Origin: an uncultured Planctomycetia bacterium
GTDB lineage: Bacteria > Omnitrophota > Gorgyraeia > Duberdicusellales > 4484-171
Length of the DNA stretch: 64,000 bases
Direction: 5' to 3'
NCBI GenBank assembly: GCA_964489445.1
Contig: CAZAYU010000002.1
Coordinates: forward strand, 355,900-419,899
A program made the translations under genes and the position numbers. This document shows, in pieces, positions 5,096 through 56,206 of this stretch. The notes under the pieces are model-generated. The model did no database searches. It had not been told where the DNA came from and was given only the letters and a program-made list of their open reading frames with translations. How positions within the stretch are numbered: position 1 is the stretch's first letter; every line of letters begins with the position of its first letter.

Positions 5096-6963
5096 TGTGT
5101 GGAATCTGTGGTATCTACAATCTAGACAAGAGACCTGTTAAAAAAAGCTCCATTCTAAGTATGCGCGATATAATGTCTTATCGCGGGCCAGATGATAAGG
5201 GAGTAATCATTTGCGATGGGTTGGGACTGGGCCATAGGCGTCTTTCGATAATTGATCTCTCGTCTGCTGCACACCAACCGTTTTCTAATGAATATCATAA
5301 TTTATGGCTTGTTTTTAATGGTTGTATTTATAATTACAAAGAGCTGCGTCATGAATTAGAATTAACAGGCAGGCATTGTTTTAAATCTAATTCTGATACA
5401 GAGGTAATTATTCATGCGTACGAAGAATGGGCTGAAGGGTGTCTAAAAAAGTTTGTTGGAATGTTTGCTTTCGCTATCTACGATACTAAGCTAAAAAGAC
5501 TTTTTCTTGCAAGAGATCCTTTTGGGATCAAACCTCTTTATTATTCTAAAATTGGCAATAGTTTTGTCTTTGCTTCAGAGATTAAATCAATCATGCAATA
5601 CAGAAAAGATAAAGCAGTAGATCTAGAGGCCGTTTCTGATTATTTGACATTTCAGTATATACTGGGAGACAAAACATTTTTTAAAAGTGTAAAGAAACTT
5701 TTGCCCGGTCATTTTATGTTTATAGTTGAGGATGGTTTAAAAATTAAAAAATACTGGGATGTAACATTTAATGTAGATTTTAAAAAATCGCCTCAGGATT
5801 TTAAAAAAGAACTTCTTTTTTTACTAGAAGATTCCGTTCGCTTACAAACAAGGAGTGATGTACCTTTAGGTGCGCATTTGACTGGTGGCATTGATACAGC
5901 TTCTATACTTTGCTTAGCGACAAGGTTTGTAGATTGTCCGATTAAAACCTTTATGGCTGGTTTTAAAGAAGGAGGGGTGTACGATGATACTTCATGGGGA
6001 AGAATAACCTCAAAATTTGCAAATACAGAACATTTCGAGATATTTCCTTCTTCCGATGATTTTAAAACATATTTTTCAACTATTATATGGCATCTTGATG
6101 AACCCATTGCTGCACCGGGTATATTTGGCCAATATATGGTATCCAAATTAGCCAGCCAAAATGTTAAGGTTGTCCTTGGGGGCCAGGGCGCAGATGAAAT
6201 GATAGGAGGGTATGCAAGGTATTATCTTTTATACATTGATAGGCTGTTGCAGAAAGATATTGCAGAAAATTCCGAGATTTTAGGTTTAAGCAAATTACAT
6301 AATTTTGGTCAACTTAAAAACTACAAGTTGCTAGAAACTGATTTTTTGCAGGATCAAAATGGTAGCTCGATTGATGAAAGATATTTTAAATTAATTAAAA
6401 GATGCGGTGATTTAGGTTCAATGCTCACTCCTCAAATTACAAAAGAATTGAATGGCTATTCATCATTTTTTGCTTTTAAACAAATATTTAATAAAAATAA
6501 TAACATAGAGCTTTTGGACAAGGTTTTATATTATGAGATAAAAACATGGTTGCCAGCTTTATTACAGGTAGAAGATAGAATGAGTATGGCATTTTCCTTA
6601 GAATCTCGAATCCCATTTCTGGATTGCAGGATAGCCAATCTTTTATTTAGCATGCCTGTGGGCATAAAATTTAAAGGTGGTAGGCTGAAACACATATTAA
6701 GAGAAGCAACAAAGGGCATAATTCCAGAAAGGATTAGGTGCAGGAACGACAAAATTGGTTTTCCAGTGCCAACAACGCAGTGGTTTAAAGGTCCTTTAAA
6801 TGGCTTCGTTAAAGATCTCTTGTTGTCAAAGAAGAGCAGAAACAGAGGAATTTTTAAACAGGGATTAGTTGAAAAAGCAATTAACAACAATTCAGAGTTT
6901 AGCAGGGAACTCTGGGGGTTAATATGCCTTGAGACATGGTTTAGGGTGATGGTAGATAATTAG
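5095..6963 (+). CDS. Asparagine synthase (glutamine-hydrolysing)-like amidotransferase (AsnB/WbpS-like)
   Basis: Begins 'MCGICGIY' (Ntn Cys2 glutaminase). A C-terminal AsnB synthetase-domain PP-loop region follows (the 'LTGGIDTASILCLAT' match is suggestive rather than exact). 622 aa. Confidence 0.85.
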   Translation: MCGICGIYNLDKRPVKKSSILSMRDIMSYRGPDDKGVIICDGLGLGHRRLSIIDLSSAAHQPFSNEYHNLWLVFNGCIYNYKELRHELELTGRHCFKSNSDTEVIIHAYEEWAEGCLKKFVGMFAFAIYDTKLKRLFLARDPFGIKPLYYSKIGNSFVFASEIKSIMQYRKDKAVDLEAVSDYLTFQYILGDKTFFKSVKKLLPGHFMFIVEDGLKIKKYWDVTFNVDFKKSPQDFKKELLFLLEDSVRLQTRSDVPLGAHLTGGIDTASILCLATRFVDCPIKTFMAGFKEGGVYDDTSWGRITSKFANTEHFEIFPSSDDFKTYFSTIIWHLDEPIAAPGIFGQYMVSKLASQNVKVVLGGQGADEMIGGYARYYLLYIDRLLQKDIAENSEILGLSKLHNFGQLKNYKLLETDFLQDQNGSSIDERYFKLIKRCGDLGSMLTPQITKELNGYSSFFAFKQIFNKNNNIELLDKVLYYEIKTWLPALLQVEDRMSMAFSLESRIPFLDCRIANLLFSMPVGIKFKGGRLKHILREATKGIIPERIRCRNDKIGFPVPTTQWFKGPLNGFVKDLLLSKKSRNRGIFKQGLVEKAINNNSEFSRELWGLICLETWFRVMVDN

Positions 6964-7100: not shown

Positions 7101-8795
7101 ATGGGTGATGGAAGGGATAGTTATAAGGTAGTTATTTTTAATAGCGTTCCTAGGCTGTTAACTTTGCTTGATCGAGATTCCAGTTCCCAAACCTATGGTT
7201 CATTTGACCGACAGCATTGGGCTTGGGCAAACAAGGACTTTGTCAATGCAGATTTTCAGCGAGGCGTATATATTTTAGCTATACTTTTTACTGAGCGCTT
7301 TTCAGGGAATACATATTATAACAATAAAAATATCCTAAAATGGATATTTGCTGGATTTGACTATTGGGTTAAGATTCAGCATAAGAATGGTTCTTTTGAT
7401 CAATGGTATCCATGGGAGAATAGCGTAGGCACTACAGGGTTTACTCTTTGTGCGTTAGGTGAAGCCTTTTTACTTATTCAAGAAAATATTCCAGGTAAAC
7501 AAAAAAAACGTTTATTAGCAGCATTTGATAAAGCTGCCAATTTTATTTGTCGATACAGAGAAACACACGGGCTTATTTCTAATCATCTGGCAGGAATGGC
7601 CCTCGCCTTATTAAATGCCTCAAATATCTTAAGTAATCATAAATATTTAGAACAAAGCAACAAGCTGTTACAACGGATATTTGAAGGTCAGTCTGCCGAA
7701 GGTTGGTACAGTGAATATGATGGTGCTGATCCAGGGTATGAGACATTAGGTATAGCTTATCTAGCCAAATATTGGAAGAAGACTCAAGATCCGCAATTAT
7801 TTCTAAGCTTAAAAAGATCCATAGATTACCTGGTTTATTTTGTCCATCCAGATGGGACTTTAGGCGGTGAATACGGAAGCCGAAACACCGAGTTATACTA
7901 TCCATCTGGCATGGAGATCTTGAAGACTGTCCTACCTCAGGCAGGATACATTGCGAACAAGATGATAATCGGAATAAAACAAGGCTACACGTTATCGCCG
8001 TTAACTATTGATGACTTCAATTTTGTGCCACTATTGTCGAGCTATCTCGATGCTTATAAAAATTTAGAACCTGAAATGACAGAGAATATAAATGGAGTAG
8101 AATTGGATAATTTTAAATATTTTGATAAATCTAAAATAGCAGTCTGGACTACTGATAAGATAAAGCTTATTATAGGACTTGTCAAAGGCGGCGTAATACG
8201 GTGTTATGGAAATGACGGCACTTTATTATATTCCGATTGCGGCTACATAGCTTATTTGAGAAATGGATCTAAAATAAGTTCTCAATTTTTAGACTATAAT
8301 GATAATTGCCAAGTCAGTGAAGCTAACTGTTGTTTGGAAAGATATTTCTCTTATGTGCCAGAGCATCAAATGACTCCCGTGTTTTATCTGTTACTTAGGA
8401 TTTTTTCACTAACAGTAGGTAGGTGTAGTAGGGTAGGTAATTGGGCCAAGAATTTGTTAGTAGGTAGGCTTATCAGATATAAGAAGATGTCCTCGTTAAA
8501 GATTATACGTTCAGTCCAGATTTCTAAAGAGAAGTTACTTATAAAGGATTATCTAAAAATAGAGGGAAAGATCAAAGTAAAAGAATTGATAAGGAAAAGC
8601 AAATTTAGTACAATCTTTATGGGCTCCGCAAGATATTTTAATCCTCAGGAATTGTATCAAGAAGATAAGCAGATAGATAATCAGCAAATAAAACAACTCA
8701 ATAATCAAGGTTTTCTTGAATTAGCCAAGGAGGTTCCATTAACAAGTGGATATACTAAAATATTTATAGAACATACGAGATTAAGTAAGTTTTAA
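7101..8795 (+). CDS. Hypothetical 564-aa protein, possibly an (alpha/alpha)-toroid heparinase II/III-like enzyme
   Basis: No unambiguous motif. The basis is gene-order recollection: a position after an AsnB-like gene in polysaccharide loci is often occupied by a heparinase II/III-family protein. Blocks 'HWAWANKDF' and 'WYPWENSVGTTGF' are noted. Confidence 0.4.
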   Translation: MGDGRDSYKVVIFNSVPRLLTLLDRDSSSQTYGSFDRQHWAWANKDFVNADFQRGVYILAILFTERFSGNTYYNNKNILKWIFAGFDYWVKIQHKNGSFDQWYPWENSVGTTGFTLCALGEAFLLIQENIPGKQKKRLLAAFDKAANFICRYRETHGLISNHLAGMALALLNASNILSNHKYLEQSNKLLQRIFEGQSAEGWYSEYDGADPGYETLGIAYLAKYWKKTQDPQLFLSLKRSIDYLVYFVHPDGTLGGEYGSRNTELYYPSGMEILKTVLPQAGYIANKMIIGIKQGYTLSPLTIDDFNFVPLLSSYLDAYKNLEPEMTENINGVELDNFKYFDKSKIAVWTTDKIKLIIGLVKGGVIRCYGNDGTLLYSDCGYIAYLRNGSKISSQFLDYNDNCQVSEANCCLERYFSYVPEHQMTPVFYLLLRIFSLTVGRCSRVGNWAKNLLVGRLIRYKKMSSLKIIRSVQISKEKLLIKDYLKIEGKIKVKELIRKSKFSTIFMGSARYFNPQELYQEDKQIDNQQIKQLNNQGFLELAKEVPLTSGYTKIFIEHTRLSKF

Positions 8796-16464: not shown

Positions 16465-17606
16465 TGCAAATTTTAATGTTGGATTTAAAAAGGCAGTATG
16501 AATATATGAGAAGAGATATAAATCCAGTCATCAGAAAATGCCTAAAACGCCAACAATGGATACTTGGCCCTGAGGTGAAGAAGTTTGAGGAAAAAATAAG
16601 CGAATATCTTGGAGTAAAGCATTGTCTGGGGGTTTCTTCTGGCACAGACGCCCTTGTTCTTTGTCTAAGAGCATTGGCAATAAAACTGAAAGGTCGGGAG
16701 TATTTTGACAGAGATGACAGAATTATAACTACACCATTTACATTTATAGCTACAGGAGATGCTATTTTACGTGCAGGTGCAACGCCTGTCTTTGTTGATA
16801 TTGATCCAGTAACTTACAATATTAACGTAAATAAAGTGAAAGATTATTTAATTTCGGCTTCGAATGTGGTAGGAATTGTTCCTGTTCACTTTTATGGTCA
16901 AGCTTGCGATATGGATGATATACTACGAATAGCTAAAGAATGCAAGTTGTTCGTAGTGGAAGATGTAGCCCAAGCCTTTGGAGGCAAGTGGAAGGAGAGA
17001 AAATTAGGTTCTATGGGAGATATTAATGCATTTAGTTTCTTTCCTAGCAAAAATCTTGGTGGGTTTGGCGATGGAGGAATGGTAGCCACAAACAATAATG
17101 AGATGGTCCAAATAACAGAGTTGCTAAGAAGACACGGGGGAAAGGATGGACGTAATGCTGAATATATTGGTTACAATGCAAGGCTTGATGCCTTGCAGGC
17201 AGGGGTACTTCTTGCCAAGATGAAATATATAGAGGAATTTAATGATAAAAAAAGAAAGAATGCAGAAATTTACAACGAAGGGTTGAAAGCGATAAAAGGT
17301 ATCATGTTGCCGGCATCTTTGCGGGAGGCACATCATGTTTATCATCAGTATACTATTAGGGTTCTAAATGGCAGAAGAGATGAGCTCCAAAGGTATCTTA
17401 ACGCAAATGGCATAGGCACAAGGGTCTATTATCCTACGCCGTTGCATAAAATGGAAGTTTTTCAAGGTAAGTGTGAAACATTAGAAAGCCTCAAGGAAGC
17501 AGAGAAAGCATCAAGAGAAGTTTTAAGCTTGCCAATAGACCCTTTGTTAACCCAGAAAGAATTAAAGAAAGTAATTAAGTACATAGCAATTAAACTGAAA
17601 ATTTAA
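16464..17606 (+). CDS. DegT/DnrJ/EryC1/StrS-family PLP-dependent sugar aminotransferase (WbpE/ArnB/GnnB-like)
   Basis: 'DINAFSFFPSKNLGGFGDGGMVATNN' block; the PLP-binding Lys lies in 'FFPSKNL'. 380 aa. Start overlaps the previous stop (TAATG). Confidence 0.85.
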   Translation: MQILMLDLKRQYEYMRRDINPVIRKCLKRQQWILGPEVKKFEEKISEYLGVKHCLGVSSGTDALVLCLRALAIKLKGREYFDRDDRIITTPFTFIATGDAILRAGATPVFVDIDPVTYNINVNKVKDYLISASNVVGIVPVHFYGQACDMDDILRIAKECKLFVVEDVAQAFGGKWKERKLGSMGDINAFSFFPSKNLGGFGDGGMVATNNNEMVQITELLRRHGGKDGRNAEYIGYNARLDALQAGVLLAKMKYIEEFNDKKRKNAEIYNEGLKAIKGIMLPASLREAHHVYHQYTIRVLNGRRDELQRYLNANGIGTRVYYPTPLHKMEVFQGKCETLESLKEAEKASREVLSLPIDPLLTQKELKKVIKYIAIKLKI

Positions 17607-17778
17607 TAGTCTTAAAAAACATGCCATCCCTTTAACTGTAACCAAAAAAGCAAAAAATGTTGAAAGAAATTGACGCATTTGATAAGGAGATCAGCACTTT
17701 AATGCTATATTATTTTTTTTGTTAAAAGGGGCAGCGTATCGAAAGCTAGGTTTTCAATATTCATTAATCATTCGCTAA

Positions 17779-17973
17779 AGAAGGAAGTTTAAAGTAACGA
17801 CAAATTCAAAACATAGTTATCCTGTATGGCCCGATATTTTAAACTGGCGCTTTATTGCAAACGAACCTAATGTTATATGGGAATCAGATATAACATATAT
17901 CTGGACTCGCGAAGGCTGGTTGTATTTAGCGGTAACACTTGACCTGCATTCTCGCGGTATCAATACACTATGA
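17779..17973 (+). mobile_element. Degraded IS3-family transposase (OrfB, integrase-core) fragment
   Basis: Translation 'NSKHSYPVWPDILNWRFIANEPNVIWESDITYIWTREGWLYLAVTLDLHSRGINTL*' matches the IS3 OrfB block '...P..VW.SDITYI....GW.YLA.V.D..SR.IVGW'. It is bounded by stops. No full transposase or inverted repeats were recognised. Confidence 0.6.
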
Positions 17974-18271
17974 GGGATTTATAGTGTCGGATCAATATGC
18001 AATTGCTCGGATTGATGAATGGCCTTACTACGGTTTCTTTTATCCTGATAATGTATATGGGGTGCAATTTCATCCGGAGCCAAGTAATGGTGCAGGAAAA
18101 TTTTTAGTTAAATTACAAAGATTCTTATTTGATCATAATGTTTATCAGGAGTTTTCAGCAAAAACACTTTCTAAACATGGAAGGCGATATTTAATAATTT
18201 TATTAACAAATGCCAATAGTTACAGTATAATATTGCTTTATTTACTAAACTTATCTGTTGTTTATAATTGA
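17939..18271 (+). pseudogene. Gene fragment carrying a class-I glutamine amidotransferase signature (GVQFHPE), likely a pseudogene remnant
   Basis: 'YGVQFHPEPSNGAGKFL' resembles the conserved GATase1 C-terminal block. There is no N-terminal catalytic Cys region. It begins inside the transposase remnant and has no RBS. Confidence 0.35.
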
Positions 18272-19323
18272 TGTTATTTATTAGAGTCATTAAATATTCA
18301 TTTAAGATAGTCTTATCTTTATTGTTACTAATTATTTTGTTAGAATTAGGTTCAAGATTTATTGTTCTAATTACTTTAAATAATTTTTTCAATAAATATT
18401 TGCCGGATAGCTACGAGAGTATAGCTGTCCAAGCTCAGAATGATACATATAGCTTTCTTAAGTCTTCAACGTTGCCAGATTCTCAGTGTTATTATATATG
18501 GAAAAATGGATTTTTCAGGGGGCCAACAGGTCAGTTTGATATTTATGGTAAGGAAAGCGATGAAATCAGAGTAATGTGTGTAGGTGATTCTACCACTTTT
18601 GGAGTATGTGTAGATTATTATTGGTCTTACCCTACAATATTAGAGAGGCTGTTAAAAGCAAAATATCCAGAATCAAATATAGGGGTACTAAATACTGGTA
18701 TTCCTGGGGCTTCATCGAAACAAATAAAAAGAGTTTTTCAGAAATATCTAGTAAAGTATAAGCCAGATATTGTTGTTTGGCGTACAGGAGTAAGATTAAC
18801 CGATCATTATGATTTACCTCAGAGCTTAGAAAATCCTATTAACAATTTATTGTGGAATATACTATCCAAGTCTACTTTATTTAGGTTGATTTGTTTATTT
18901 GTTGACAGGGTGATTCCGGATAAGCCTCCGGTAGATCATACATTGTATTCTTATCTAATAGAAAGAAATACGACATTGGAGCCTTGTGGTAATTTTGATT
19001 CAAATTTCGCCATAGTAAATGATATTGCGCGAAGCAATGGAACTAAATATGTTTTAGCTGTTGATTATTTGAGGCGGGATTTAGATGGTTCTCAGAATAT
19101 TACAAGCGACTTTGATGATTACCCAGATAAAGATGTGCCTCCGGTAGTAAATACTTATGAAACTTTTAAAGAAATATTAATGGACGTAGATATCAATGAT
19201 GTATTCGTTGACGAATGTCATCTTACAAGGTTAGGCACAAGCGTTATTGCTAATGCAGTGGCTGAACATATAACTACTAATGGTTGGATTGATAGTTTTA
19301 CAAATAAGCATCCAGACGGGTAA
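18268..19323 (+). CDS. SGNH/GDSL-family hydrolase or acyl-esterase with an N-terminal TM anchor
   Basis: Block I 'IRVMCVGDSTTFG' (GDS nucleophile). C-terminal block V 'DECHLTRLG'. It is paralogous to the ORF at 54641. Confidence 0.7.
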   Translation: MMLFIRVIKYSFKIVLSLLLLIILLELGSRFIVLITLNNFFNKYLPDSYESIAVQAQNDTYSFLKSSTLPDSQCYYIWKNGFFRGPTGQFDIYGKESDEIRVMCVGDSTTFGVCVDYYWSYPTILERLLKAKYPESNIGVLNTGIPGASSKQIKRVFQKYLVKYKPDIVVWRTGVRLTDHYDLPQSLENPINNLLWNILSKSTLFRLICLFVDRVIPDKPPVDHTLYSYLIERNTTLEPCGNFDSNFAIVNDIARSNGTKYVLAVDYLRRDLDGSQNITSDFDDYPDKDVPPVVNTYETFKEILMDVDINDVFVDECHLTRLGTSVIANAVAEHITTNGWIDSFTNKHPDG

Positions 19324-19338
19324 GATGTCGTCTGATGC
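19308..19338 (+). terminator. Imperfect inverted repeat (hairpin) overlapping the stop codon of the SGNH gene
   Basis: 'gcatccagacg' then loop 'ggtaagatgt' then 'cgtctgatgc', followed by an AT-rich tract. A possible terminator. Confidence 0.3.
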
Positions 19339-19460
19339 ATTTCATTCTAAAATTATTTATATAATAAAACATGGTTAGAGAAAATGCATTATTTCCAAAA
19401 AAAGTTTCTTAATAAAGGGAAAATAGAAAAAGTTTATATTATTCTGTTATCAGATTCGCC

Positions 19461-19706
19461 TTGTTTGCGCTAAAATTTAACATAAAAACAGGCATCAAAG
19501 TATATAAACAAGATAAAAAACATATGCTTAAATGGGCTAAAGAAAAATTTCCTAAATATCTTATATTTAAAGAATTAATTAATTTTTTTTGTAAGAATAG
19601 GCTATGGTGGATGATACCATTAATTATTGCTTTTGTATTCTCAGCAGTGTTAATATGGTTTTGTCAGTCTTCGGCAGTATCTTCCTTGATGTACACTCTA
19701 TTTTAA
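19461..19706 (+). CDS. Small membrane peptide (81 aa, or 60 aa from the internal ATG at 19524) with one C-terminal TM helix, ending ...SSLMYTLF
   Basis: '...NRLWWMIPLIIAFVFSAVLIWF...SSLMYTLF'. It resembles the unannotated peptide at 54486 (KWW + TM + FIYSLF). From memory (unverified), it also resembles the DUF5989 small-membrane-peptide family, whose C-terminus ends 'FIYTLF'. Confidence 0.45.
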   Translation: MFALKFNIKTGIKVYKQDKKHMLKWAKEKFPKYLIFKELINFFCKNRLWWMIPLIIAFVFSAVLIWFCQSSAVSSLMYTLF

Positions 19707-20213
19707 TGTCGTGATTTGTTTAAGTGTCAGGAGAATAAACATTTATTATGAATAAGGATATTGTTGATAAGGAATGGGTTACAAATATGGATGTGTAGGC
19801 TACTAATTAATTTGGGCGTTATAGGGTATTATTTATTGGAAAAGATAAAGTTATGTTATTCTCTATTGTTTAGGGTCACAGCTGGGAATTAATTATGGGG
19901 TGAATTGGTAAAGCAAGGTATGGATTGAAAATATTACTCTTGAAATATGGGTGTTAATACAATTACCTTCCTGGAATACTTTTTTCGAGAGTAAGCCTCA
20001 GTGCTTTTTATATAAATTATACTTGGCTCTATGGTAAATAGTTTCTTGGTGTATTAATATAATTGCTGTGCAAGATTTATTTAAGTGCTATAGGCAAAAA
20101 CGGTTTGAAGAGTCTGGAGTAGTTATTTGTTTTTAGAAGCTAAAAAATGTAGTATAGCTAGAAGATAAAAATTAACGAAAGGCGGCGAAAAACTTTCGGC
20201 GTAAATATTTGAT

Positions 20214-22550
20214 ATGATAGATAAGTCTAAGAAATATTTTCCAGCGATGCTATTAATTGCAATTATACTATTGCATATAACTTCTAATTATGTTTGGTTA
20301 AAAAAAGATGATACCTACCTTATGCATGATGCGCATCATAATTTTTTGTTTAGCCTGGGTGTGTTTCATCAAATCCAAGAAAGTTTTATTCCTTTTTTAA
20401 GCGATGTGTTTAGTAAAATCATTTATCACCGTTGGCATGGAGTGTTAGTCGGCTACCTTACAGCACCTTTTTATTTTATTTTTGGTGCCGGCCAAGATAT
20501 AGGGGTGATGGTTAGCAGTACTATTTTTTTAAGTATATTAATTCTTTCAGTGTACGGGATTGGAAAACTAATTCATAGTCGGGCCTCCGGATTACTTTCC
20601 GCATTTCTTATAAGTATTTATCCAATGGTTTTTAATCATTTACGTACGTATATGCTGGATTTACCGCTTACCTCAATGGTAAGTCTAAGCGTGTATTTGC
20701 TGTTAAGGACAAAGTTATTTTCTCAAAGGTTATTTTCACTATTTTTTGGAATATCTATGGGGTTGGGGTTGTTAACAAAATTTAATTTTATCGGCTTTAT
20801 AATCGGACCGCTATTATTTATTTTTTACAAAGCATTCAATATTAAACAAAGTAAAATAAATACAGAACGAAAGAAAATTTTTCATTTTTTTATTATTATT
20901 TGCTTGTCGTTTATTCTTGTGCTTCCTTTTTTAAGGATAAAATTCTGGGAAGTTTTTTCACGATTTTATGAATGTTCATGGCTAAATCCGGTATTTAATA
21001 CTTCTTATGATTCGGTTTTTATTCTTTTTGTCCATTGGTTTTTTGGAGGATGGCAGTTTATTGTTTGGTGTTTCCGGGAAATGAAAGATAGCATTCTATC
21101 GCCTTTATTTTTTTTAATTTTTATTATCAGTTTTTTCATGTTCAAACGAAGTCATGCTAAGTATAGATCGGTTTTTTATTTATGGATACTATTTCCGGTA
21201 TTTGTTTTAAGTTTTGTTTTTCATTATCCGGCAATAAATCGTTATCTAATGCCTTGTTTACCGGCAATAGCAATAGTTTCAGCGATAGGATTAATGACTT
21301 TAAAACCTGTTTTTTTGCGCAGAATAATTATTTTCTTGGTAATAAGTTGTGGAGTTGTCCAATATTTTATTATTTCTTATGGTTATCCTGCTTTTTTTAA
21401 TAATTCAGATGCAAGCTTACCAAAAATAGTTTCAAGATTAAAAAATAGTATATCTTACCGTGATGTTCCTATTGATTATCGAAATGGGCTAAATCGAGGC
21501 GCAAAACCGTCATTATCAAAATGGCCTGTTGAAGAAATTTTAAATAAATTATTAATAGAAGCAAGAGGCTGTCCGCAAAAAATAACAGTTTTTTTCATTG
21601 ATCCTGTTCCGGAAATATACGAGCCAATAGAGTATTTATGCTTGGCAAATAATTATCCAATAGAAATTCACGTTAATTCCTTAAGCGAAGAAGAATCCTA
21701 CAGGGATAAAGAAGAAGATTTTGAACCAAAAAATATGCCTGACTATGTATTAATGGTTGATAATCCGGATAGGGCCAATGATTATCTTCCTATTTCTGTG
21801 AAAGAGAGAATTAACAATTCCCGTAAAAATTTCCAAAATATTCAGGACGAATATGCCTTATGCAATGTTTTTAGGTTGTCAGAAGAAAGTAATATTTTAT
21901 TGTTCAGAGATGCCAGTGAGTCCGTGCGTTTAGAAACACCATTAATTACTGCAGTATTTAAGAGAGGGCGTGTAAGGCTATTTTTTAATGATTATCCTGA
22001 CAGTGAACCTTTATTTATCGTTAATTCCTTTGATTTTGAGGGAGAAAAATATTTGTCAACAGAGATGGAATGGGAGATTAATAAAAGTAGCAAGAAAACA
22101 ATCATGGCTCTTGGTAAGTTGAAAAATTCAGCATTAAGGCAAACATGGAGTTTCTCTGTAAATGAGAATCAAGAAGGAGAATTTAACGCTATTGTTAGCG
22201 CAGAAGAAGAAATAAAAGATAGCATCTTTTCGATTGAAATTCCTAGTTATTATCAGGAATGGGAAACGTCTTTAGAACGAGGTGAGTTTGGTAAAAAGAC
22301 TATATTAAGATATTGCTTCAGGGAATTGTTGTCACCGGTAGACTGTATAACTTTTTGTAAGTTAAGAAGAAGGAATGTGCCCCGCTTTACTTTATTGCCA
22401 AGTTCGGGAGAATGTGATATTAGCTCGTTATTAGCTTATAAAAAAGATCGGCGTATCGTTCAATTTAGGTTGAGCGAGCAAAAGAATAATCAGTATTCTT
22501 TGGATAAAAGTTTAATGAATTCATTTACTCTAAAAATTAAATTCGATTAA
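20214..22550 (+). CDS. GT-C fold membrane glycosyltransferase (ArnT/PMT_2-like), paralog 3, with a long C-terminal soluble domain
   Basis: The block 'YLTAPFYFIFGAGQDIGVMVSSTIFLSILILSVYGIGKLIHSRASGLLSAFLISIYP' is collinear with paralogs 1 and 2. 778 aa. About 12 TM helices, then a roughly 350-aa hydrophilic domain. Confidence 0.65.
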   Translation: MIDKSKKYFPAMLLIAIILLHITSNYVWLKKDDTYLMHDAHHNFLFSLGVFHQIQESFIPFLSDVFSKIIYHRWHGVLVGYLTAPFYFIFGAGQDIGVMVSSTIFLSILILSVYGIGKLIHSRASGLLSAFLISIYPMVFNHLRTYMLDLPLTSMVSLSVYLLLRTKLFSQRLFSLFFGISMGLGLLTKFNFIGFIIGPLLFIFYKAFNIKQSKINTERKKIFHFFIIICLSFILVLPFLRIKFWEVFSRFYECSWLNPVFNTSYDSVFILFVHWFFGGWQFIVWCFREMKDSILSPLFFLIFIISFFMFKRSHAKYRSVFYLWILFPVFVLSFVFHYPAINRYLMPCLPAIAIVSAIGLMTLKPVFLRRIIIFLVISCGVVQYFIISYGYPAFFNNSDASLPKIVSRLKNSISYRDVPIDYRNGLNRGAKPSLSKWPVEEILNKLLIEARGCPQKITVFFIDPVPEIYEPIEYLCLANNYPIEIHVNSLSEEESYRDKEEDFEPKNMPDYVLMVDNPDRANDYLPISVKERINNSRKNFQNIQDEYALCNVFRLSEESNILLFRDASESVRLETPLITAVFKRGRVRLFFNDYPDSEPLFIVNSFDFEGEKYLSTEMEWEINKSSKKTIMALGKLKNSALRQTWSFSVNENQEGEFNAIVSAEEEIKDSIFSIEIPSYYQEWETSLERGEFGKKTILRYCFRELLSPVDCITFCKLRRRNVPRFTLLPSSGECDISSLLAYKKDRRIVQFRLSEQKNNQYSLDKSLMNSFTLKIKFD

Positions 22551-42721: not shown

Positions 42722-44419
42722 GTGTCTAAGATTAAATCAATAATCGTAACAGATTTTACTGCCGATGCCTTAAAAGGCTACCTAAACAATGATACCTGCT
42801 ATCCTTTAGTTAACGCAAAGATTACGCCATTTGCTCAGGTTATGCAATCTTATTTCAAGAGATTTCCAGAATTTGGAAAAAATAAGATTAACTTTGCAGT
42901 TGTCTGGACTAGACCAGAAGGCGTTATTGAATCTTTTATGCGCTTTGCTAATTATCAAAGCGCATCAATTAATGAGATATTAGCCGATGTCAACGAGTAT
43001 TGCCGGTTTTTAATAGGTCTTCAAGATAAGGTAAAATTAGTATTTGTTCCGACATGGATTTTCCCTACTTATCATAGAGGACATGGAATGCTGGAAATGA
43101 GAAAAGATTTAGGCATTAGAAATATTCTTATGCAAATGAACTTAATGCTTTCTGATAAGTTAAATGAAACAAAGAATATTTATTTATTGAATGCTCAAAG
43201 ATGGATTGAAAGCGTAGGCAGTGATGCTTTTGATTCAAAGTTGTGGTATTTAGCTAAGATTCCTTTTGATGCTGCAATCTTCAAGGAAGCGGCAAAAGAT
43301 ATTAAGTCTGCATTAAGAGGTATATTTGGTGTTGCAAGAAAGATGATAATCGTTGATTTAGACAATACGATCTGGGGAGGTTCTGTTGGAGAAATAGGAT
43401 GGGAGAAGCTTAAACTTGGCGGGCATGATCCAGTAGGAGAAGCTTTTGTTGACTTTCAGAGAGCTTTAAAGTCATTTATTAACCGTGGCATTTTATTAGG
43501 TATTGTTAGCAAAAATGAGCCGTCCGTTGTGTTAGATGCAATAAATAATCATCCAGAAATGTGTCTAAGATTAAATGATTTTAGTGCATGGGCGATTAAC
43601 TGGGAAGATAAAGCTAAAAATATCATTCGTTTAGCATCGAATTTAAATATTGGTCTTGAATCAATAGTCTTTATTGATGATAATCCATTAGAAAGAGCAA
43701 GGGTCAAAGAGTCTTTGCCGGAGGTTTTTGTTCCTGAATGGCCTAAGAACAAGATGCTGTTTAGGGAAACTTTGCTTAATCTTTCTTGCTTTGATACACC
43801 TTCAATAACTGAGGAGGATTTAGCCAAGACTAGAATGTATATGTCTTTTATCAGCCGTAAAGGGCAGCAAATAAAAATGAAGTCAGTGAATACATGGTTA
43901 AAAAAACTGTTTATTAAAGTAAAAATAGATGAGTTGCAGGATGTTGATATTGAAAGAGTAACGCAACTGTTAAATAAAACAAATCAAATGAATTTAACTA
44001 CTAGACGCCTTATTGCCTCAGAGTTGGATATTTGGGCCCATAAAAGAAATCATAAGCTTTGGACTTTTCGAGTTTCAAATAAATTTGGGGATTTAGGCTT
44101 AGTAGGTGTGGTAAGCCTTGGAATAAACAGAAAAGAAGGCAGGATTGTAGATTTTGTTTTAAGCTGCAGAGCTTTTGGGTTAAGGATTGAAGAAGCTATG
44201 CTCATTGCAACTATACGGTATTCTCAAAGTGTTGGTTTAATAAAAGTGCAGGCAAAATATATCAGCACTCCTAAGAATAAGCCTTGTTTAAATTTTTGGA
44301 GAAAAACAATATTTGAATTTGACAAAAAAAGAAATATCTTTTTTTATAGTCCAGGAAAAACTCATTATTTTCCGCGATACATTACAATAGTAGACAATCG
44401 ACGCAGTGATCCCTGTTAG
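42722..44419 (+). CDS. FkbH-like HAD-superfamily (subfamily IIIC) glyceryl-ACP loading enzyme
   Basis: HAD motif I 'MIIVDLDNTIWGG'. Motif II 'GIVSKN'. Motif IV 'VFIDDNPLERARV'. A C-terminal roughly 200-aa FkbH-type domain. 565 aa. Confidence 0.75.
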   Translation: MSKIKSIIVTDFTADALKGYLNNDTCYPLVNAKITPFAQVMQSYFKRFPEFGKNKINFAVVWTRPEGVIESFMRFANYQSASINEILADVNEYCRFLIGLQDKVKLVFVPTWIFPTYHRGHGMLEMRKDLGIRNILMQMNLMLSDKLNETKNIYLLNAQRWIESVGSDAFDSKLWYLAKIPFDAAIFKEAAKDIKSALRGIFGVARKMIIVDLDNTIWGGSVGEIGWEKLKLGGHDPVGEAFVDFQRALKSFINRGILLGIVSKNEPSVVLDAINNHPEMCLRLNDFSAWAINWEDKAKNIIRLASNLNIGLESIVFIDDNPLERARVKESLPEVFVPEWPKNKMLFRETLLNLSCFDTPSITEEDLAKTRMYMSFISRKGQQIKMKSVNTWLKKLFIKVKIDELQDVDIERVTQLLNKTNQMNLTTRRLIASELDIWAHKRNHKLWTFRVSNKFGDLGLVGVVSLGINRKEGRIVDFVLSCRAFGLRIEEAMLIATIRYSQSVGLIKVQAKYISTPKNKPCLNFWRKTIFEFDKKRNIFFYSPGKTHYFPRYITIVDNRRSDPC

Positions 44420-50076: not shown

Positions 50077-50164
50077 TTTTCTAGAGGGCGGAATAGATAG
50101 GTAAGATATATTGCGTAATGTGCCGTATTATGTAAGCGTAATGATTATTAAGAAGGAGGTGAAT

Positions 50165-50416
50165 ATGGAGAAAAAAGAGACAATCAGACAATTTATTATC
50201 GAATATTTTCTTTCAGGTAGCGGAGAAATTAAGGATGATGATTCATTATTTGAAGCAGGAATAATAGACTCCCTGAGCCTTCTTGAATTGATCGCTTTTA
50301 TAGAAAAAACATATGGCATTTCTATAAGCATGAGCCAAATCACTATTAGTAATTTTGATTCTATAAATAAAATCTATAAATTAATAAAAGGTAGTAAACG
50401 TAAGGGCATTAATTAG
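50165..50416 (+). CDS. Acyl/peptidyl carrier protein (ACP 2)
   Basis: 'GIIDSLSLLELIAFIEKTYG' (DSL Ser attachment site). Strong RBS 'aggaggtgaat' before the ATG at 50165. The track ORF starts earlier at 50111. Confidence 0.7.
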   Translation: MEKKETIRQFIIEYFLSGSGEIKDDDSLFEAGIIDSLSLLELIAFIEKTYGISISMSQITISNFDSINKIYKLIKGSKRKGIN

Positions 50417-50418
50417 TA

Positions 50419-52857
50419 ATGTTTAATATAAGAATTAATAATGTTACATATGATTTTTCGCGGGAGAAAAATGTTATGATGGCTTTGCGTTTCAAAGGGG
50501 CAAGGCAGCAATGTTTATTTAAGTATGCACGAAATATAAGAGATAAAGTTTTCTCTAAACAGGTCGAAATAAGGAGTGTTATCGAGTATTCTAATGTTTG
50601 TCAGCAGGCATGTAATTATTGCGGAATGAGCAAAGCGTCAATGGTAACTCGTTACATATTAAAAAGAAATCAGCTAATATCTCGTGTTAATAAGTTATAT
50701 GATTGTGGACGTAGAATTATAATATTACAGGCGGGTGAGTGCAATAATGATAATTATTTAGATAATTTGTTTGGCCTAATTAAGATGTTAAAAAATGAAT
50801 ATCCTTATTTAGTCATAGTGGGTAGTTTTGGTAATTTATCGCGAGATAATTATAAAAGATTGAGGGATATTGGGGTCGATAGGTATTTACTTAAATTTGA
50901 AACATCAGATGCTAAGCTATACAGAAGAATTAAGCCTACCGATTGTCTTAAAAAAAGACTAGATTGCATTACATTTTTAAAGAAAATAGGTTTTTATGTC
51001 AGCTCTGGCAATATAACTGGGATACCGCAACAATCTCTTAGTAGTTTAGCTGATGATATTTTTTTACTTAAAAAATTAGATATTTGCATGGGTAGCACAT
51101 CACCTTTTATTCCTAACGAGGTTTCTAATTATAGAGATTGTTTTCCGGGAGATATTAATCTTACGCTTAATTTTATAGCAATCCTAAGGATACTCTGTCC
51201 GACTATGTTAATACCTGCTACAAGTTCTTTGGAATTGATTATAAAGGGAGGCCAGTATCTGGGGCTGATGGCAGGAGCAAATGTGCTTACTTTGCATGAT
51301 GGAACTCCCGCAAATAAAGAAAAAATGTTTTTGTTGTATAAAAAGAATCGGTACAAGCCTAAGGGAATTCTATTTAATATTGTTCAAAGAGCAGGCCTGA
51401 AGCCAAGCTTATTTTCTCTTGTTAAGAATAAAGCAGAAAACTCTCTTTTTTATAAACTCGTTAGCCAGAATGTCAATCGTAAGAGTTCTTATATTTATTC
51501 CGATAGCAGTAGGTATACATACGAGGAAGTGCTATTATTGACTTCGAAATGCTGTTCGTTCTTGCAAGGCAATAATATTAAGGAGAGGGATGTAGTAATG
51601 TTAGCTTTATTTGATTCAATAGAATTCATTATTGTTTGCCTAGCTTGCATAAGACTAGGCATAATTGTTGCACCGATAGATCCGCTATCAACTGTAGACG
51701 AGCTAAGGTTTTTAATCTCTGATTGTGTACCCAAAATTATATTAGCAACAGATAGTATTGCTAAGAAATTAAGATACAAGAATGTTATGAAAATAACCAA
51801 CGATAATTGCCCTAAATATTTTTTTTCGTTGCTCTGCAGGAGAAAAAAAAGTATTTTTTTAGCTGCTGTTGATAAAAATAATCCGGCTATTATTTTGTAT
51901 ACTTCTGGGACTACAGGCAAGGCCAAAGGTGTAGTCCACAGCTATAATGATCTACTTACTATGAATTTTCCACATAAGATATTGAGGGTATGCAAAAAAG
52001 ATATTTTCTTTTCTTATTCTAGGATTTATACTAGTTTTGGTTTTGGTAATAGTTTACTTTTTCCGTTATATTGTGGTGCGTCTGTAATTTTATCCAGAAA
52101 TATCCCAAATCCGGTTGCATTGTCTGATGTGTTATTGTATAATCCTACATTATTTTTTGCGGTTCCCGGCGTGTATAAGCTATTGTTAAGAAGTAGAAAA
52201 CTAATAAAACATAATTTTAGTTGTGTTCGTCAATTTATTTCTTCTGGTGAGAGTCTCGGTGAGGATATTTTTAAGCAATGGGAAAAAGTTTATGGCTTTA
52301 GGTTATTGGATTGTTTTGGAACATCTGAGATGTGCCATCCGTTTATTTCGAATATTCCGGGAGAGGAAAAATCTGGGACTTGCGGAAAAACGGTAGAAGG
52401 ATTTCAGGTAAAGTTTGATAAAAAAGGTAAAATGTTTTACAAGGGGCCTTCCTTGTTTTCTGGATATTATAGAAGGAATAAATTTGTAAAAGAAACAATG
52501 GTGGTTGATGGATGGTTTGAATCAAATGATATTGGACGCGTAGATAAAAATGGCAGTATAGTTTTAAAAGGCAGAGACAATCTAATATTTAAGATTAATG
52601 GTAAGTGGATTTCAGCCTTAAATATAGAGGATAAAATAAATCGATTGGAGTTAATAAAGGAAAGCGCTGCTATAAAGAAAGCAGACGGTTTATATCTGTA
52701 TGTTTCTTTAAATTTAAAGGAAATAAAACCTGTTGAGGCTATAAGCTTAGTAAGAAGTTATTGTGTAGAAAAATTGAAAATTAACGAATTTCCCGTAAAA
52801 ATAAACTTGTTAGATGAAATACCGAAGACAAGAAGCGGGAAAATTAAAAGACAGTAA
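50419..52857 (+). CDS. Fusion protein: N-terminal HydE/PylB/BioB-like radical SAM domain plus C-terminal adenylation (AMP-binding, acyl-CoA-synthetase/DltA-like) domain
   Basis: Radical SAM: 'IEYSNVCQQACNYCGMS' (CX3CX2C) and 'IIILQAGE', reminiscent of HydE/PylB 'SNYC..NC.YCG...VLQSGE'. Adenylation: 'ILYTSGTTGKAKGVV' (A3), 'GESLG', 'GFRLLDCFGTSE' (A5), 'GWFESNDIGRVDKNGSIVLKGRDNLIFKINGKWI' (A7/A8), 'PKTRSGKIKRQ' (A10). It is a single 812-aa frame. Confidence 0.75.
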   Translation: MFNIRINNVTYDFSREKNVMMALRFKGARQQCLFKYARNIRDKVFSKQVEIRSVIEYSNVCQQACNYCGMSKASMVTRYILKRNQLISRVNKLYDCGRRIIILQAGECNNDNYLDNLFGLIKMLKNEYPYLVIVGSFGNLSRDNYKRLRDIGVDRYLLKFETSDAKLYRRIKPTDCLKKRLDCITFLKKIGFYVSSGNITGIPQQSLSSLADDIFLLKKLDICMGSTSPFIPNEVSNYRDCFPGDINLTLNFIAILRILCPTMLIPATSSLELIIKGGQYLGLMAGANVLTLHDGTPANKEKMFLLYKKNRYKPKGILFNIVQRAGLKPSLFSLVKNKAENSLFYKLVSQNVNRKSSYIYSDSSRYTYEEVLLLTSKCCSFLQGNNIKERDVVMLALFDSIEFIIVCLACIRLGIIVAPIDPLSTVDELRFLISDCVPKIILATDSIAKKLRYKNVMKITNDNCPKYFFSLLCRRKKSIFLAAVDKNNPAIILYTSGTTGKAKGVVHSYNDLLTMNFPHKILRVCKKDIFFSYSRIYTSFGFGNSLLFPLYCGASVILSRNIPNPVALSDVLLYNPTLFFAVPGVYKLLLRSRKLIKHNFSCVRQFISSGESLGEDIFKQWEKVYGFRLLDCFGTSEMCHPFISNIPGEEKSGTCGKTVEGFQVKFDKKGKMFYKGPSLFSGYYRRNKFVKETMVVDGWFESNDIGRVDKNGSIVLKGRDNLIFKINGKWISALNIEDKINRLELIKESAAIKKADGLYLYVSLNLKEIKPVEAISLVRSYCVEKLKINEFPVKINLLDEIPKTRSGKIKRQ

Positions 52858-54402: not shown

Positions 54403-54485
54403 TGGGTTTAGCAATGGTAAGCGATTTTCATCCATCATGATAGGGCATAAAAATTTGACAACAATCCAAGAGGAGAGCGAATAAG

Positions 54486-54638
54486 ATGAGATTTAATTAT
54501 AAGGATTTTATTCAAATAATTTTGACTCAAAATAAATGGTGGGTGACAACAATGCTTATTAGTACAATATTGATTGTCTTTATAATTTTGTATTTGATAA
54601 AATATGAGACTAGTGAGTTTATCTATAGCCTGTTTTAG
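54486..54638 (+). CDS. Unannotated 50-aa membrane peptide ending ...SEFIYSLF, paralogous to the peptide at 19461-19706
   Basis: Translation 'MRFNYKDFIQIILTQNKWWVTTMLISTILIVFIILYLIKYETSEFIYSLF'. RBS 'gaggagagcgaataag' before the ATG. It is absent from the ORF track because it is short. Confidence 0.5.
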   Translation: MRFNYKDFIQIILTQNKWWVTTMLISTILIVFIILYLIKYETSEFIYSLF

Positions 54639-54640
54639 TC

Positions 54641-56206
54641 TTGCAACCAGATATTATGGTTAAAAATAATTGTTTGTTTCTTAAGAGGAAAATTTTATTG
54701 ATAATATTCGGAATATTTTTTTCTTTAATAGTTGTTGAGCTGGGATTGCGAATCGTTGGGTGGGGGTGGTCGGCGCATGATAACTTTAGAAATAAATCTT
54801 ATTTGGTTGAAACCGATTCGGATACAATCAGGATTCTTTGCTTGGGGGCATGCTATACAGCTGGAGTGGGAGTTGAGCCAGATAAAACATATCCACATTA
54901 CTTAGAGAAATTTTTAAGCGAGCATTACCCAACAAAATCTTTTCGTGTTATTAATCGAGGTGTTCGTGGTAAAACATTGTCGTTTTTTGTGAATCGGTTA
55001 GAGCGTTTTGTAAAAGATTATTCTCCTCGAATAATTATTATGAATATAGGAAGTAGTGTGGATTTTTATGAGAAAAATGTGCTTTTAGCGAATAGCAATT
55101 TATTATCTTCTGTTGATAAAATTAAAATTAGCTTGCGTATATTTCTCAAAAAATTTAAAATTTATAGAGTGTTTAATCTTATGTTTTCTTCACTAAACAG
55201 AAGAAATGCGGAAATAAACGATAAGGAGGATATTTCTCGAGAATTTTATGCGGAAGGTGAAGAAAATAAGTATCATGCCCAGGTTAGGGAGTTGCAATGT
55301 AAAGTTAAGGTAGACCCACAATCTTCTGAAAATTGGAGTCGTCTTGCTTTTATTTATGCAGACCAAGGGCTTTATCAGTTGTCAGAAAAATACATAAAAA
55401 AAGCCATAGAACTTGACCAAAACAATGGATGGAATTATTTGCATTTATTTTGGTGTTATGTCTTTCAACGTGAGTATGAATTAGCGGTAAGGTCTCAAAA
55501 ACAAGCGCTAGATGTGGACCCTGCTATTATCAAATGGCTGGATGATGAGATAAAAAATATCAATGGATTTATAAAGCGTAAGCCGTATGTAATGTCATAT
55601 TATTTCCATTTATCAGATAGGTATGCTATGCTTGGTGATTATGAGCGCGCTATAAAAACGCTAAAACAGATTTTATATAAAGGTCCTGACCATATTGATT
55701 ATGTTGATAGATTGTCTTTTTATGAGACAGTGGTTCGAAAAACAAAGAACAGCGATGAAATATGCGTAAATAGTTCAGTAGGTAGGAAAAAGTATTTCAA
55801 TCGGGAAAATAGCCAGCATTGGGCGTTTATGGCTGAAGCAGAAGGCTTTCTTAAAGAAAAAATACCCGTAAATGATTCAGAAAAACTAGATGGATGTAAA
55901 ATATTTGACAGATTATTTAAATATAATTTAAGAAAAATTAATAAAATTGCCAGAAAATATAATATTAAATTTTTTCTTGAAAATATGGGGTCTTCATTTG
56001 AGCAGCAAGAGATTGTAGAAAGTGCTTGCAAAGAATCAAATATACCTTTGGTTGATTTGTATTCTTATTTTAGAAATACATCGGATGATGCGAGCCTTTT
56101 CCATTCTTCTGTTTCCTTGAGGCTTAGTGAAAAAGGGAATAAAATTGTAGCTGAGAAAATATTTAAAGCGTTAGTAAGTGCTGGTGTTGTAGATGAGGTT
56201 AATTAG
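54641..56206 (+). CDS. SGNH-like paralog with an inserted TPR-repeat region. The catalytic GDS is replaced by GAC.
   Basis: 'IRILCLGACYTAGVGVE...YPHYLEKFLSEHYP...INRGVRG' is collinear with the 18268 protein 'IRVMCVGDSTTFGVCVD...YPTILERLLKAKYP...LNTGIPG'. A TPR-like segment spans about residues 200-330. The probable start is the ATG at 54656. Confidence 0.6.
   Translation: MQPDIMVKNNCLFLKRKILLIIFGIFFSLIVVELGLRIVGWGWSAHDNFRNKSYLVETDSDTIRILCLGACYTAGVGVEPDKTYPHYLEKFLSEHYPTKSFRVINRGVRGKTLSFFVNRLERFVKDYSPRIIIMNIGSSVDFYEKNVLLANSNLLSSVDKIKISLRIFLKKFKIYRVFNLMFSSLNRRNAEINDKEDISREFYAEGEENKYHAQVRELQCKVKVDPQSSENWSRLAFIYADQGLYQLSEKYIKKAIELDQNNGWNYLHLFWCYVFQREYELAVRSQKQALDVDPAIIKWLDDEIKNINGFIKRKPYVMSYYFHLSDRYAMLGDYERAIKTLKQILYKGPDHIDYVDRLSFYETVVRKTKNSDEICVNSSVGRKKYFNRENSQHWAFMAEAEGFLKEKIPVNDSEKLDGCKIFDRLFKYNLRKINKIARKYNIKFFLENMGSSFEQQEIVESACKESNIPLVDLYSYFRNTSDDASLFHSSVSLRLSEKGNKIVAEKIFKALVSAGVVDEVN

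Follow-up and report, generated by a model that had tools for sequence, protein, structure and literature searches.

The small gene and its immediate surroundings

The window analysed here is a 64,000-nucleotide (nt) stretch of DNA from an uncultured bacterium (assembly GCA_964489445.1, contig CAZAYU010000002.1, positions 355,900 to 419,899 of the forward strand), which carries a very large polysaccharide locus. Within this locus, a short open reading frame (ORF), hereafter called peptide 1, lies downstream of a gene for a membrane-anchored protein of the SGNH/GDSL type. Peptide 1 is a previously unannotated member of a known, widespread and uncharacterised family, DUF5989 (Pfam PF19451), and a second, divergent copy, peptide 2, is present in the same window (Table 1).

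The ORF of peptide 1 extends over positions 19461..19706 of the forward strand and encodes 81 amino acids (aa) if it is read from a TTG codon at 19461, or 60 aa if it is read from the ATG at 19524, with CQSSAVSSLMYTLF (SSLMYTLF) as its C-terminus. The original prediction had favoured the shorter form, and the comparison with homologs agrees with this choice: ATG 19524 is the probable start, because the modal length in the family is 59-60 aa and the closest relatives, which are 59-63 aa long, align from this methionine, including two full-length ones (L091 and L093) of exactly 60 aa, in which 31-32 of the 60 residues are identical to peptide 1 in an ungapped alignment. The in-frame upstream extension is probably untranslated, since the members of the family are mostly 59-60 aa long and the 81-aa version scores no higher against the Pfam model than the 60-aa version.

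A hydropathy scan reveals in the 60-aa form one hydrophobic segment of transmembrane (TM) grade, at residues 29-47 (Kyte-Doolittle mean 2.43), which is preceded by the NRLWW motif, just as had been predicted from the sequence. The part that is N-terminal to this segment contains seven lysine or arginine residues and has a net charge of +5; the C-terminal tail, of 13 residues, carries no charge. In a model made with AF2 from an alignment of 50 sequences (mean pLDDT 78), helices are found at residues 10-24, 30-48 and 50-59. The layout of the modelled protein thus reads as a basic N-terminus and an amphipathic helix (10-24), followed by a break at the interface motif NRLWW (KNRLWW), the TM helix (residues ~29-48) and a short helix in the tail.

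The gene of the SGNH-type protein ends 137-138 nt before the TTG codon, in agreement with the 138 bp given in the original prediction, and 200 nt before the ATG. A hairpin had also been placed in this gap. It is real, as only one of 200 shuffled sequences folds equally well, but it straddles the end of the upstream gene, whose stop codon (19321-19323) is found in the loop, and it does not lie wholly within the gap. It fails the rule for terminators because it lacks a T run, and its role between the two genes might be to terminate transcription weakly or to stabilise a 3' end. A promoter scan gave nothing beyond what is expected from shuffled sequences, a canonical terminator was not detected, and a search of Rfam found no family in positions 17500-20400. 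On the other side of the SGNH-type gene, a 110-aa ORF (17939-18271 on the forward strand, with a gene call of 95 aa on metagenome contigs) abuts its start. This ORF contains GVQFHPE, a motif of class-I glutamine amidotransferases, and matches HisH/GATase models weakly (E ~0.002); its sequence suggests a C-terminal gene fragment, left by local decay or by a past rearrangement.

Table 1. Positions, in the window, of the two small genes and of the features that adjoin them
Feature	Coordinates	Strand	Basis or remark
N-terminally membrane-anchored SGNH/GDSL-type protein	18268..19323 (start TTG 18268 or ATG 18271)	+	near-threshold Pfam matches, motifs
Hairpin spanning the SGNH stop codon	19308..19338	+	folding -15 kcal/mol, z = -3.1
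In-frame upstream extension from TTG (81-aa version)	19461..19523	+	probably untranslated
DUF5989 (SxtK-like) gene, peptide 1, 60-aa bitopic membrane protein QSSAVSSLMYTLF	19524..19706 (including stop codon)	+	Pfam PF19451
Non-coding gap after peptide 1, 507 bp	19707..20213	.	no ORFs of note
Second, divergent DUF5989-like gene, peptide 2, 50 aa	54486..54638	+	Pfam match below the gathering threshold, family hidden Markov model (HMM), ribosome-binding site
Membrane-anchored SGNH-like domain with TPR repeats, beside peptide 2	54641..56206	+	Lipase_GDSL_2 37.2 bits and TPR (Pfam)

Membership in the DUF5989 family and a second copy

Against Pfam, peptide 1 matches the DUF5989 model with 45.6 bits (E = 7.4e-12), far above the gathering threshold of 27, over positions 3-49 of the 49 positions of the profile, which bears out the family that the original prediction had named. 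The second part of that assignment, a likeness to SxtJ, turned out to be right in essence: SxtJ is a near-obligate neighbour of DUF5989 genes elsewhere, but it is a different protein (PF19588) and it is absent here. Homologs were found by an exhaustive phmmer search of 1.84 billion representative sequences, which at E <= 1e-3 yielded 106 proteins with 33-50% identity to peptide 1, nearly all of them 50-80 aa long and every one aligned through its last residue, whereas a word-index search with the 60-aa peptide returned no match. In a collection of 5.8 billion proteins a profile search detected at least 6801 DUF5989 clusters (at 90% identity), and PF19451 is present in all of the top 120, whose names are either 'DUF5989 family protein' or 'hypothetical protein'. 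None of the NCBIfam models matches peptide 1 or peptide 2.

The family consensus can be written as ..R..I..ELL.FFW..K.WWL.P...VLLL.G.LI.FAQSSA.APFIYTLF, in which five positions (W28, W29, Y57, L59 and F60 in the numbering of peptide 1) are invariant and are kept in both peptides of the window. At the near-invariant positions peptide 1 is identical to the family in 11 of 21 cases, and most of the other changes are conservative. It possesses the proline at the start of the TM helix (P32), the QSS motif (Q48, S49, S50) and T58, and it reads FFC where the family has FFW or FLW.

The window has a GC content of 33% and contains many spurious ORFs, and the original prediction had itself pointed to a random ORF of AT-rich DNA, with neither a family nor conserved relatives, as the outcome that would speak against it. 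The match to PF19451 and the conserved homologs remove this worry, and the reading of peptide 1 as a chance ORF is effectively refuted. A related idea, that the radical-SAM enzymes of the locus use peptide 1 as a precursor peptide, might draw on the presence of at least seven B12-binding radical-SAM genes there and on a radical-SAM protein of ~1300 aa that precedes the module in the closest relatives. However, with thousands of homologs that share the TM helix and an invariant C-terminus, and with SxtJ and a carbamoyltransferase rather than radical-SAM maturases as the conserved neighbours of the family, we regard these two explanations together as highly improbable.

We are therefore confident that peptide 1 is a real DUF5989 gene that has been missed by gene callers. 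In either form it is missing from a collection of 15 billion proteins. Among contigs with this locus, 17 were read, and all pipelines leave the gene uncalled there, as on every contig with the identical SGNH-type gene. A conserved gene of 60 codons can thus escape the current gene callers.

The original prediction had also remarked that the features of peptide 1 match those of a peptide at 54486, and the two are indeed related: they can be aligned without gaps over 46 aa (BLASTP, E = 4e-5). When an HMM of the family, built from outside homologs only, was searched against all segments of 30 aa or more in the six-frame translation of the window, just two were significant, namely 19416-19706 (72 bits), which contains peptide 1, and 54459-54638 (24.7 bits, E = 7e-7), which contains peptide 2, and the next segment had E = 0.07. 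Against the Pfam model itself peptide 2 reaches 18.6 bits (E = 0.002; profile positions 5-49 of 49), which is below the gathering threshold, and it retains the invariant WW, Y, L and F. It is preceded by a GAGGAG ribosome-binding site, and its stop codon lies 2 nt before the TTG codon of the gene that encodes the SGNH-like domain with TPR repeats. This peptide had been described as unannotated, which is true in the sense that NCBI does not call it; the JGI, ENA and Logan pipelines, on the other hand, do call it, without annotation.

SGNH neighbours and the genomic context of the family

Searched with a profile of SGNH proteins, the window yields just two genes of this type, one beside each DUF5989 ORF. 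The protein encoded beside peptide 1 falls just short of the Pfam thresholds (Lipase_GDSL_2 32.1 bits with a threshold of 32.9, Lipase_GDSL 22.9 with a threshold of 23.6). It exhibits the GDS of block I (GDSTTFG) and the DxxH of block V (DECH), both invariant among its four homologs, while the asparagine of block III is replaced by threonine (LTD). A sequence search of the PDB retrieved acetyl xylan esterases of the Axe2 type (E = 2e-4). An AF2 model of the protein attained a pLDDT of only 52.5, a low confidence due to an alignment of four sequences only, and the top matches found with it by Foldseek in the PDB were all SGNH hydrolases (e.g. TesA and Axe2), with target TM-scores of at most 0.62. 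The signal-anchor helix at the N-terminus is preceded by basic residues, so the catalytic domain would be situated outside the cytoplasm. Its nearest homologs are only three, with 43-45% identity: two are encoded on contigs shorter than 2 kb and the third on a contig of 13.9 kb, L087. Its homology also extends to the SGNH genes located next to DUF5989 genes elsewhere.

The protein encoded beside peptide 2, for which one gene caller places the start at 54698, differs in its active site, as the nucleophilic serine is replaced by cysteine (GAC in LGACYTAG) and the DxxH of block V is missing, while its homolog in L087 (5412-6917) retains GES and DFGH. Judging from these substitutions, it may not be a canonical hydrolase, and it may instead be a pseudo-enzyme or carry out a different chemistry. 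In nearly all the SGNH proteins that were aligned, which are encoded beside DUF5989 in several phyla or are close homologs of the two in the window, the single N-terminal TM anchor ends with an E-x-x-x-R motif (e.g. LLELGSR, VVELGLR, VLEITLR, LAEFFLR), a conserved pair of charges at the edge of the membrane. It is present in the window at 18268-18360 and 54680-54760, and in the proteins from L087, L091, L092, L093, L007, L051, L057, L062 and L063; the exceptions are L014, with histidine for arginine, and L011, which is unaligned in this region.

To place these pairs in the context of the family, genomes (one per species) were scanned for the motif APFIYTLF, and 541 sites were confirmed. The analysis used the best 80 loci, which come from Acidobacteriota, Chloroflexota, Planctomycetota, Omnitrophota, Bacteroidota, Nitrospirota, Proteobacteria, Cyanobacteria and others. 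ORFs were called in their neighbourhoods and clustered, the main clusters were labelled with Pfam, and neighbours were counted in those 57 loci whose flanks reach 3 kb or more in each direction. Within 3 kb of the DUF5989 gene, SxtJ is found in 55 of these loci, a carbamoyltransferase in 47 and an SGNH-like gene in 26. The carbamoyltransferase, a protein of ~600 aa, is of the NodU/CmcH type (Carbam_trans_N, PF02543, 364 bits; Carbam_trans_C, PF16861, 236 bits). The neighbour of 140-160 aa was identified as SxtJ (PF19588) by five representatives that score above the threshold, with the one from L040 (22.3 bits) just under the cut-off of 24.4, and the neighbour of ~350-450 aa is an SGNH/GDSL-like protein that is homologous to both SGNH genes of the window. 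The order varies, the commonest arrangements being J-D-CT, CT-J-D and S-J-D-CT (J, SxtJ; D, DUF5989; CT, carbamoyltransferase; S, SGNH), and D is always in the core. In three loci (L031, L057 and L074) DUF5989 and SGNH genes occur with no carbamoyltransferase in the fetched span, and SxtJ is still adjacent. Cultured bacteria that carry the full module are Ensifer adhaerens L18 (L049), Singulisphaera sp. GP187 (L053) and Magnetospirillum sp. UT-4 (L055). A 200-aa protein (P0103) was identified as a fusion of SxtJ (HMM score 55 bits, residues 23-115) with DUF5989 (Pfam, 57 bits, residues 157-200), which argues for a physical association of the two.

A scan of metagenome contigs with a motif resembling that of the window, [KR]LWWM[IM]Px[VIM], added 80 further loci, 20 of them with adequate flanks. 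Eighteen of the 20 possess both the carbamoyltransferase and SxtJ, eight possess an SGNH gene, and one (L095) is an orphan. The DUF5989 gene of the latter (5923-6171; Pfam, 73.6 bits) is located between an ORF for a 561-aa membrane protein and an ORF for a 449-aa protein that looks like a glycosyltransferase, with neither SxtJ nor a carbamoyltransferase nor an SGNH gene within the span of the contig (~6 kb upstream and 2 kb downstream), and it is thus a second example of DUF5989 without partners. The pairing of the peptide with an SGNH gene, whose conservation in relatives the original prediction had proposed to check, recurs widely: an SGNH gene on the same strand and at most 300 nt away accompanies DUF5989 in 22 of 82 cases among the genome loci and in 21 of 82 among the metagenome loci, but the pairing is absent from L087, the only sizeable contig with a close homolog of this particular SGNH gene.

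The closest relatives of peptide 1 are found in L090-L093, with 52-55% identity and with a GC content of 28-35% that resembles that of the window. The order of genes in L092 is a radical-SAM protein (~1327 aa), SGNH, DUF5989, a 73-aa SxtJ-like protein, the carbamoyltransferase and a second SGNH, and L090, L091 and L093 are partial. The SGNH gene runs 4 nt into the DUF5989 gene in L090 and L091. The short SxtJ-like protein (~73 aa; L090 1388-1609, L092 6668-6892, L093 ~230-442) is missed by the Pfam model of SxtJ and detected by an SxtJ profile derived with jackhmmer, and therefore SxtJ may be under-annotated in lineages of low GC content.

Proposed role, the wider locus and known systems

Combining the assignment with the context, we lean slightly towards the view that peptide 1 is a DUF5989 gene whose product works as a small membrane subunit with the adjacent SGNH protein in the modification of a polysaccharide. 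According to the positive-inside rule, the distribution of charges predicts a cytoplasmic N-terminus and a C-terminal tail on the outside, which would bring the conserved Y-x-L-F-COOH end to the same outer side of the membrane as the SGNH catalytic domain. The peptide may pack against the single TM anchor of the SGNH protein, which ends with E-x-x-x-R, or it may touch the periplasmic domain, and in this way it could help to hold in place or stabilise an enzyme for the addition or removal of decorations of the ester type (acyl or carbamoyl) on the polysaccharide exported by the products of the locus. In the canonical modules, DUF5989 and SxtJ would link a cytoplasmic carbamoyltransferase to the membrane, and the basic amphipathic helix at the N-terminus would face the cytoplasm, on the side of the carbamoyltransferase.

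Several observations weigh against such a role. The contact between the peptide and the SGNH protein is one that we infer purely from the features described above, and a search of the literature found no paper that names DUF5989. SxtJ, the near-obligate partner, is absent from the window according to an HMM search of all its six-frame segments. L087, which carries a 43% identical homolog of the SGNH protein as well as an SGNH-TPR gene, has no DUF5989 ORF (a 54-aa gene called there was considered as a candidate and rejected, as it is an N-terminal fragment of an SGNH gene). Whereas the two genes overlap by 4 nt in the closest relatives, here 200 nt and a hairpin lie between the SGNH gene and peptide 1. 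Peptide 1 has no Shine-Dalgarno sequence, though the same is true of about half of the genes in the window, and its near-invariant Pro54 is replaced by serine. Finally, all the contigs that carry the locus are 100% identical across the region, which precludes a test of selection (dN/dS) from polymorphism.

The carbamoyltransferase is missing as well: none was found in the window by Pfam searches of ~45 large ORFs, by tblastn or by HMM searches of the six-frame segments, and when 10 kb past each end of the window were searched with Pfam, neither it nor SxtJ was found, so that ~84 kb are free of both. One could suppose that peptide 1 acts in trans with SxtJ and a carbamoyltransferase that are encoded elsewhere, and that the proximity of the SGNH gene merely reflects the shared ancestry of the module. 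In favour of this, the ~84 kb inspected belong to a contig of at least 452 kb, and SxtJ accompanies DUF5989 in 55 of the 57 loci and is fused to it in P0103. On the other hand, the partners almost always lie within 3 kb in the loci examined, and two separate copies of DUF5989 are both paired with SGNH genes here, which makes the explanation in trans rather unlikely.

The closest relatives carry SxtJ and the carbamoyltransferase in the place where the window has the 507-bp gap. When this gap was searched with tblastn for remnants of the two genes, nothing but noise came up, and a 13-aa hydrophobic match (19944-19982) was set aside as low-complexity. The main rival of the proposed role is that peptide 1 is an intact but functionless relic of an SGNH-DUF5989-SxtJ-carbamoyltransferase module that has lost the partners. 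It would account for the gaps of 507 bp and 200 nt, which contrast with the overlapping genes of the SGNH-DUF5989-SxtJ-CT-SGNH arrangement in the relatives and stand out in an otherwise tightly packed locus, and it agrees with the glutamine amidotransferase fragment upstream as an indication of local decay, with the missing ribosome-binding site, with the loss of Pro54 and with the failure of all pipelines to call the gene. However, the lack of any trace of SxtJ or the carbamoyltransferase means that the loss must be old, and yet the ORF is intact in DNA of 33% GC, where a random stretch of 60 codons would remain open about 1% of the time (an estimate from the base composition), and it scores 45.6 bits and keeps every invariant residue at only 52-55% identity to its nearest relatives. 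Besides, the second DUF5989-SGNH pair in the same locus has a good ribosome-binding site, and the orphan in L095 comes from another context of the polysaccharide type. We consider the relic to be the less probable explanation, albeit one to be taken seriously, and we retain the role of peptide 1 as a partner of the SGNH protein.

The window thus offers two natural 'minimal' cases that comprise the peptide and an SGNH gene only, and these may suggest that the peptide has a partner other than SxtJ. A bolder generalization, which we consider doubtful, is that DUF5989 proteins are dedicated subunits of membrane-anchored, outward-facing SGNH enzymes that are able to act without SxtJ and the carbamoyltransferase, and that in the full module SxtJ and DUF5989 form a trans-membrane bridge by which a carbamoyltransferase in the cytoplasm is coupled to an SGNH transferase or esterase in the periplasm. 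If this were true, it would define an extracytoplasmic relay for the O-carbamoylation or decarbamoylation of exported glycans and metabolites, analogous to O-acetylation by MBOAT and SGNH proteins, and it would provide a role for the long-unexplained sxtJ and sxtK. The find as such leaves the understanding of major processes unchanged, and the function of the peptide is one that we infer.

As to the wider locus, Pfam identifies glycosyltransferases of the GT1, GT2 and GT4 families, PMT_2 proteins, Wzx flippases, MBOATs, sulfatases and many B12-radical-SAM enzymes. The density of B12-binding radical-SAM genes is exceptional, with eight of them: those at 8805, 13068, 22580 (which matches the B12-binding domain below the threshold), 36624, 38079, 48610 and 61450, and one just past the end of the window. 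Just upstream of the window (L170 2410-9854) there are a gene for a 1282-aa multi-domain radical-SAM protein, which has 33-37% identity to the ~1327-aa protein that precedes SGNH-DUF5989-SxtJ-CT in L091 and L092, and three rSAM-SPASM genes. The gene for an acyl carrier protein (ACP; 50111) precedes that for an 812-aa fusion of radical-SAM and AMP-binding (adenylating) domains (50419), the region being 50111-52857 on the forward strand, and upstream of it a protein with an FkbH domain (42722-44419, forward strand; TIGR01686, 251 bits) is encoded beside two MBOAT genes (44482 and 47154). This set looks like a pathway for ACP-dependent acyl or glyceryl decoration in a polysaccharide locus. There are also four genes of the sulfatase family (40404, 52975, 56193 and 57495) and a phosphodiesterase/sulfatase-like gene (30960), all on the forward strand, and four glycosyltransferases of the PMT_2 type (1660, 11471, 20214 and, in L171, 14299), a mix of sulfatases and PMT_2 proteins that is unusual for an exopolysaccharide locus. 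A 564-aa protein encoded on the forward strand at 7101-8795 has no match in Pfam at 1e-5, and the precomputed annotation of the identical gene in L081 and L170 is Ulvan_lyase_N (PF25840).

Among known systems, OafA/OafB, PatA-PatB and AlgI-AlgJ-AlgX are two-part systems for the O-acylation of glycans, which consist of a membrane part and a periplasmic SGNH part. The likeness is one of analogy: a membrane-tethered, outward-facing domain of the SGNH fold is combined with one or more membrane partners in a polysaccharide locus, and the window has two MBOAT genes. DUF5989, however, is not known to be homologous to any component of these systems, has one TM helix only and possesses no plausible catalytic residues.

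A closer comparison can be made with the canonical modules of DUF5989 itself, which in Acidobacteriota, Chloroflexota, Planctomycetota, Nitrospirota, Proteobacteria and others have the composition carbamoyltransferase-SxtJ-DUF5989(-SGNH). Peptide 1 differs from their members by the lost Pro54, the FFC sequence, the absence of both core partners and the long non-coding gaps on either side, and peptide 2 by a divergence that takes its score below the Pfam threshold. Peptide 1 resembles them, on the other hand, in its length, in the WW pair, the proline that opens the TM helix, the QSS motif and the terminal Y-T-L-F, and in the adjacent TM-anchored SGNH protein.

The same pattern of four genes is known from the saxitoxin (sxt) clusters of cyanobacteria, where the gene tables list, in this order, sxtI (an O-carbamoyltransferase), sxtJ (399-441 bp), sxtK (162-165 bp) and sxtL (a GDSL lipase). 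These genes are co-inherited, with sxtJ and sxtK adjoining sxtI; SxtL has been proposed to be a decarbamoylase, and SxtJ and SxtK are hypothetical proteins described as acting 'in conjunction with' SxtI or as 'regulatory' (PMC2679770, PMC2684587, PMC2885083, PMC7073992, bioRxiv 10.64898/2026.06.11.731795). The window lacks SxtJ, the carbamoyltransferase and any toxin pathway, and its context is that of a very large polysaccharide locus. In terms of size, however, the 162-165 bp of sxtK (PMC2679770, PMC7073992) compare with 183 bp for peptide 1, and in most loci DUF5989 is located beside SxtJ and the carbamoyltransferase, often with an SGNH/GDSL gene. Since this context reproduces the sxtI-J-K-L pattern, SxtK (53-54 aa) most probably belongs to the DUF5989 family, as judged from gene size and context. 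Modules of the sxtI-J-K-L type are far commoner in loci of the polysaccharide type than in toxin clusters, and their context across the family provides a testable lead on sxtJ and sxtK.

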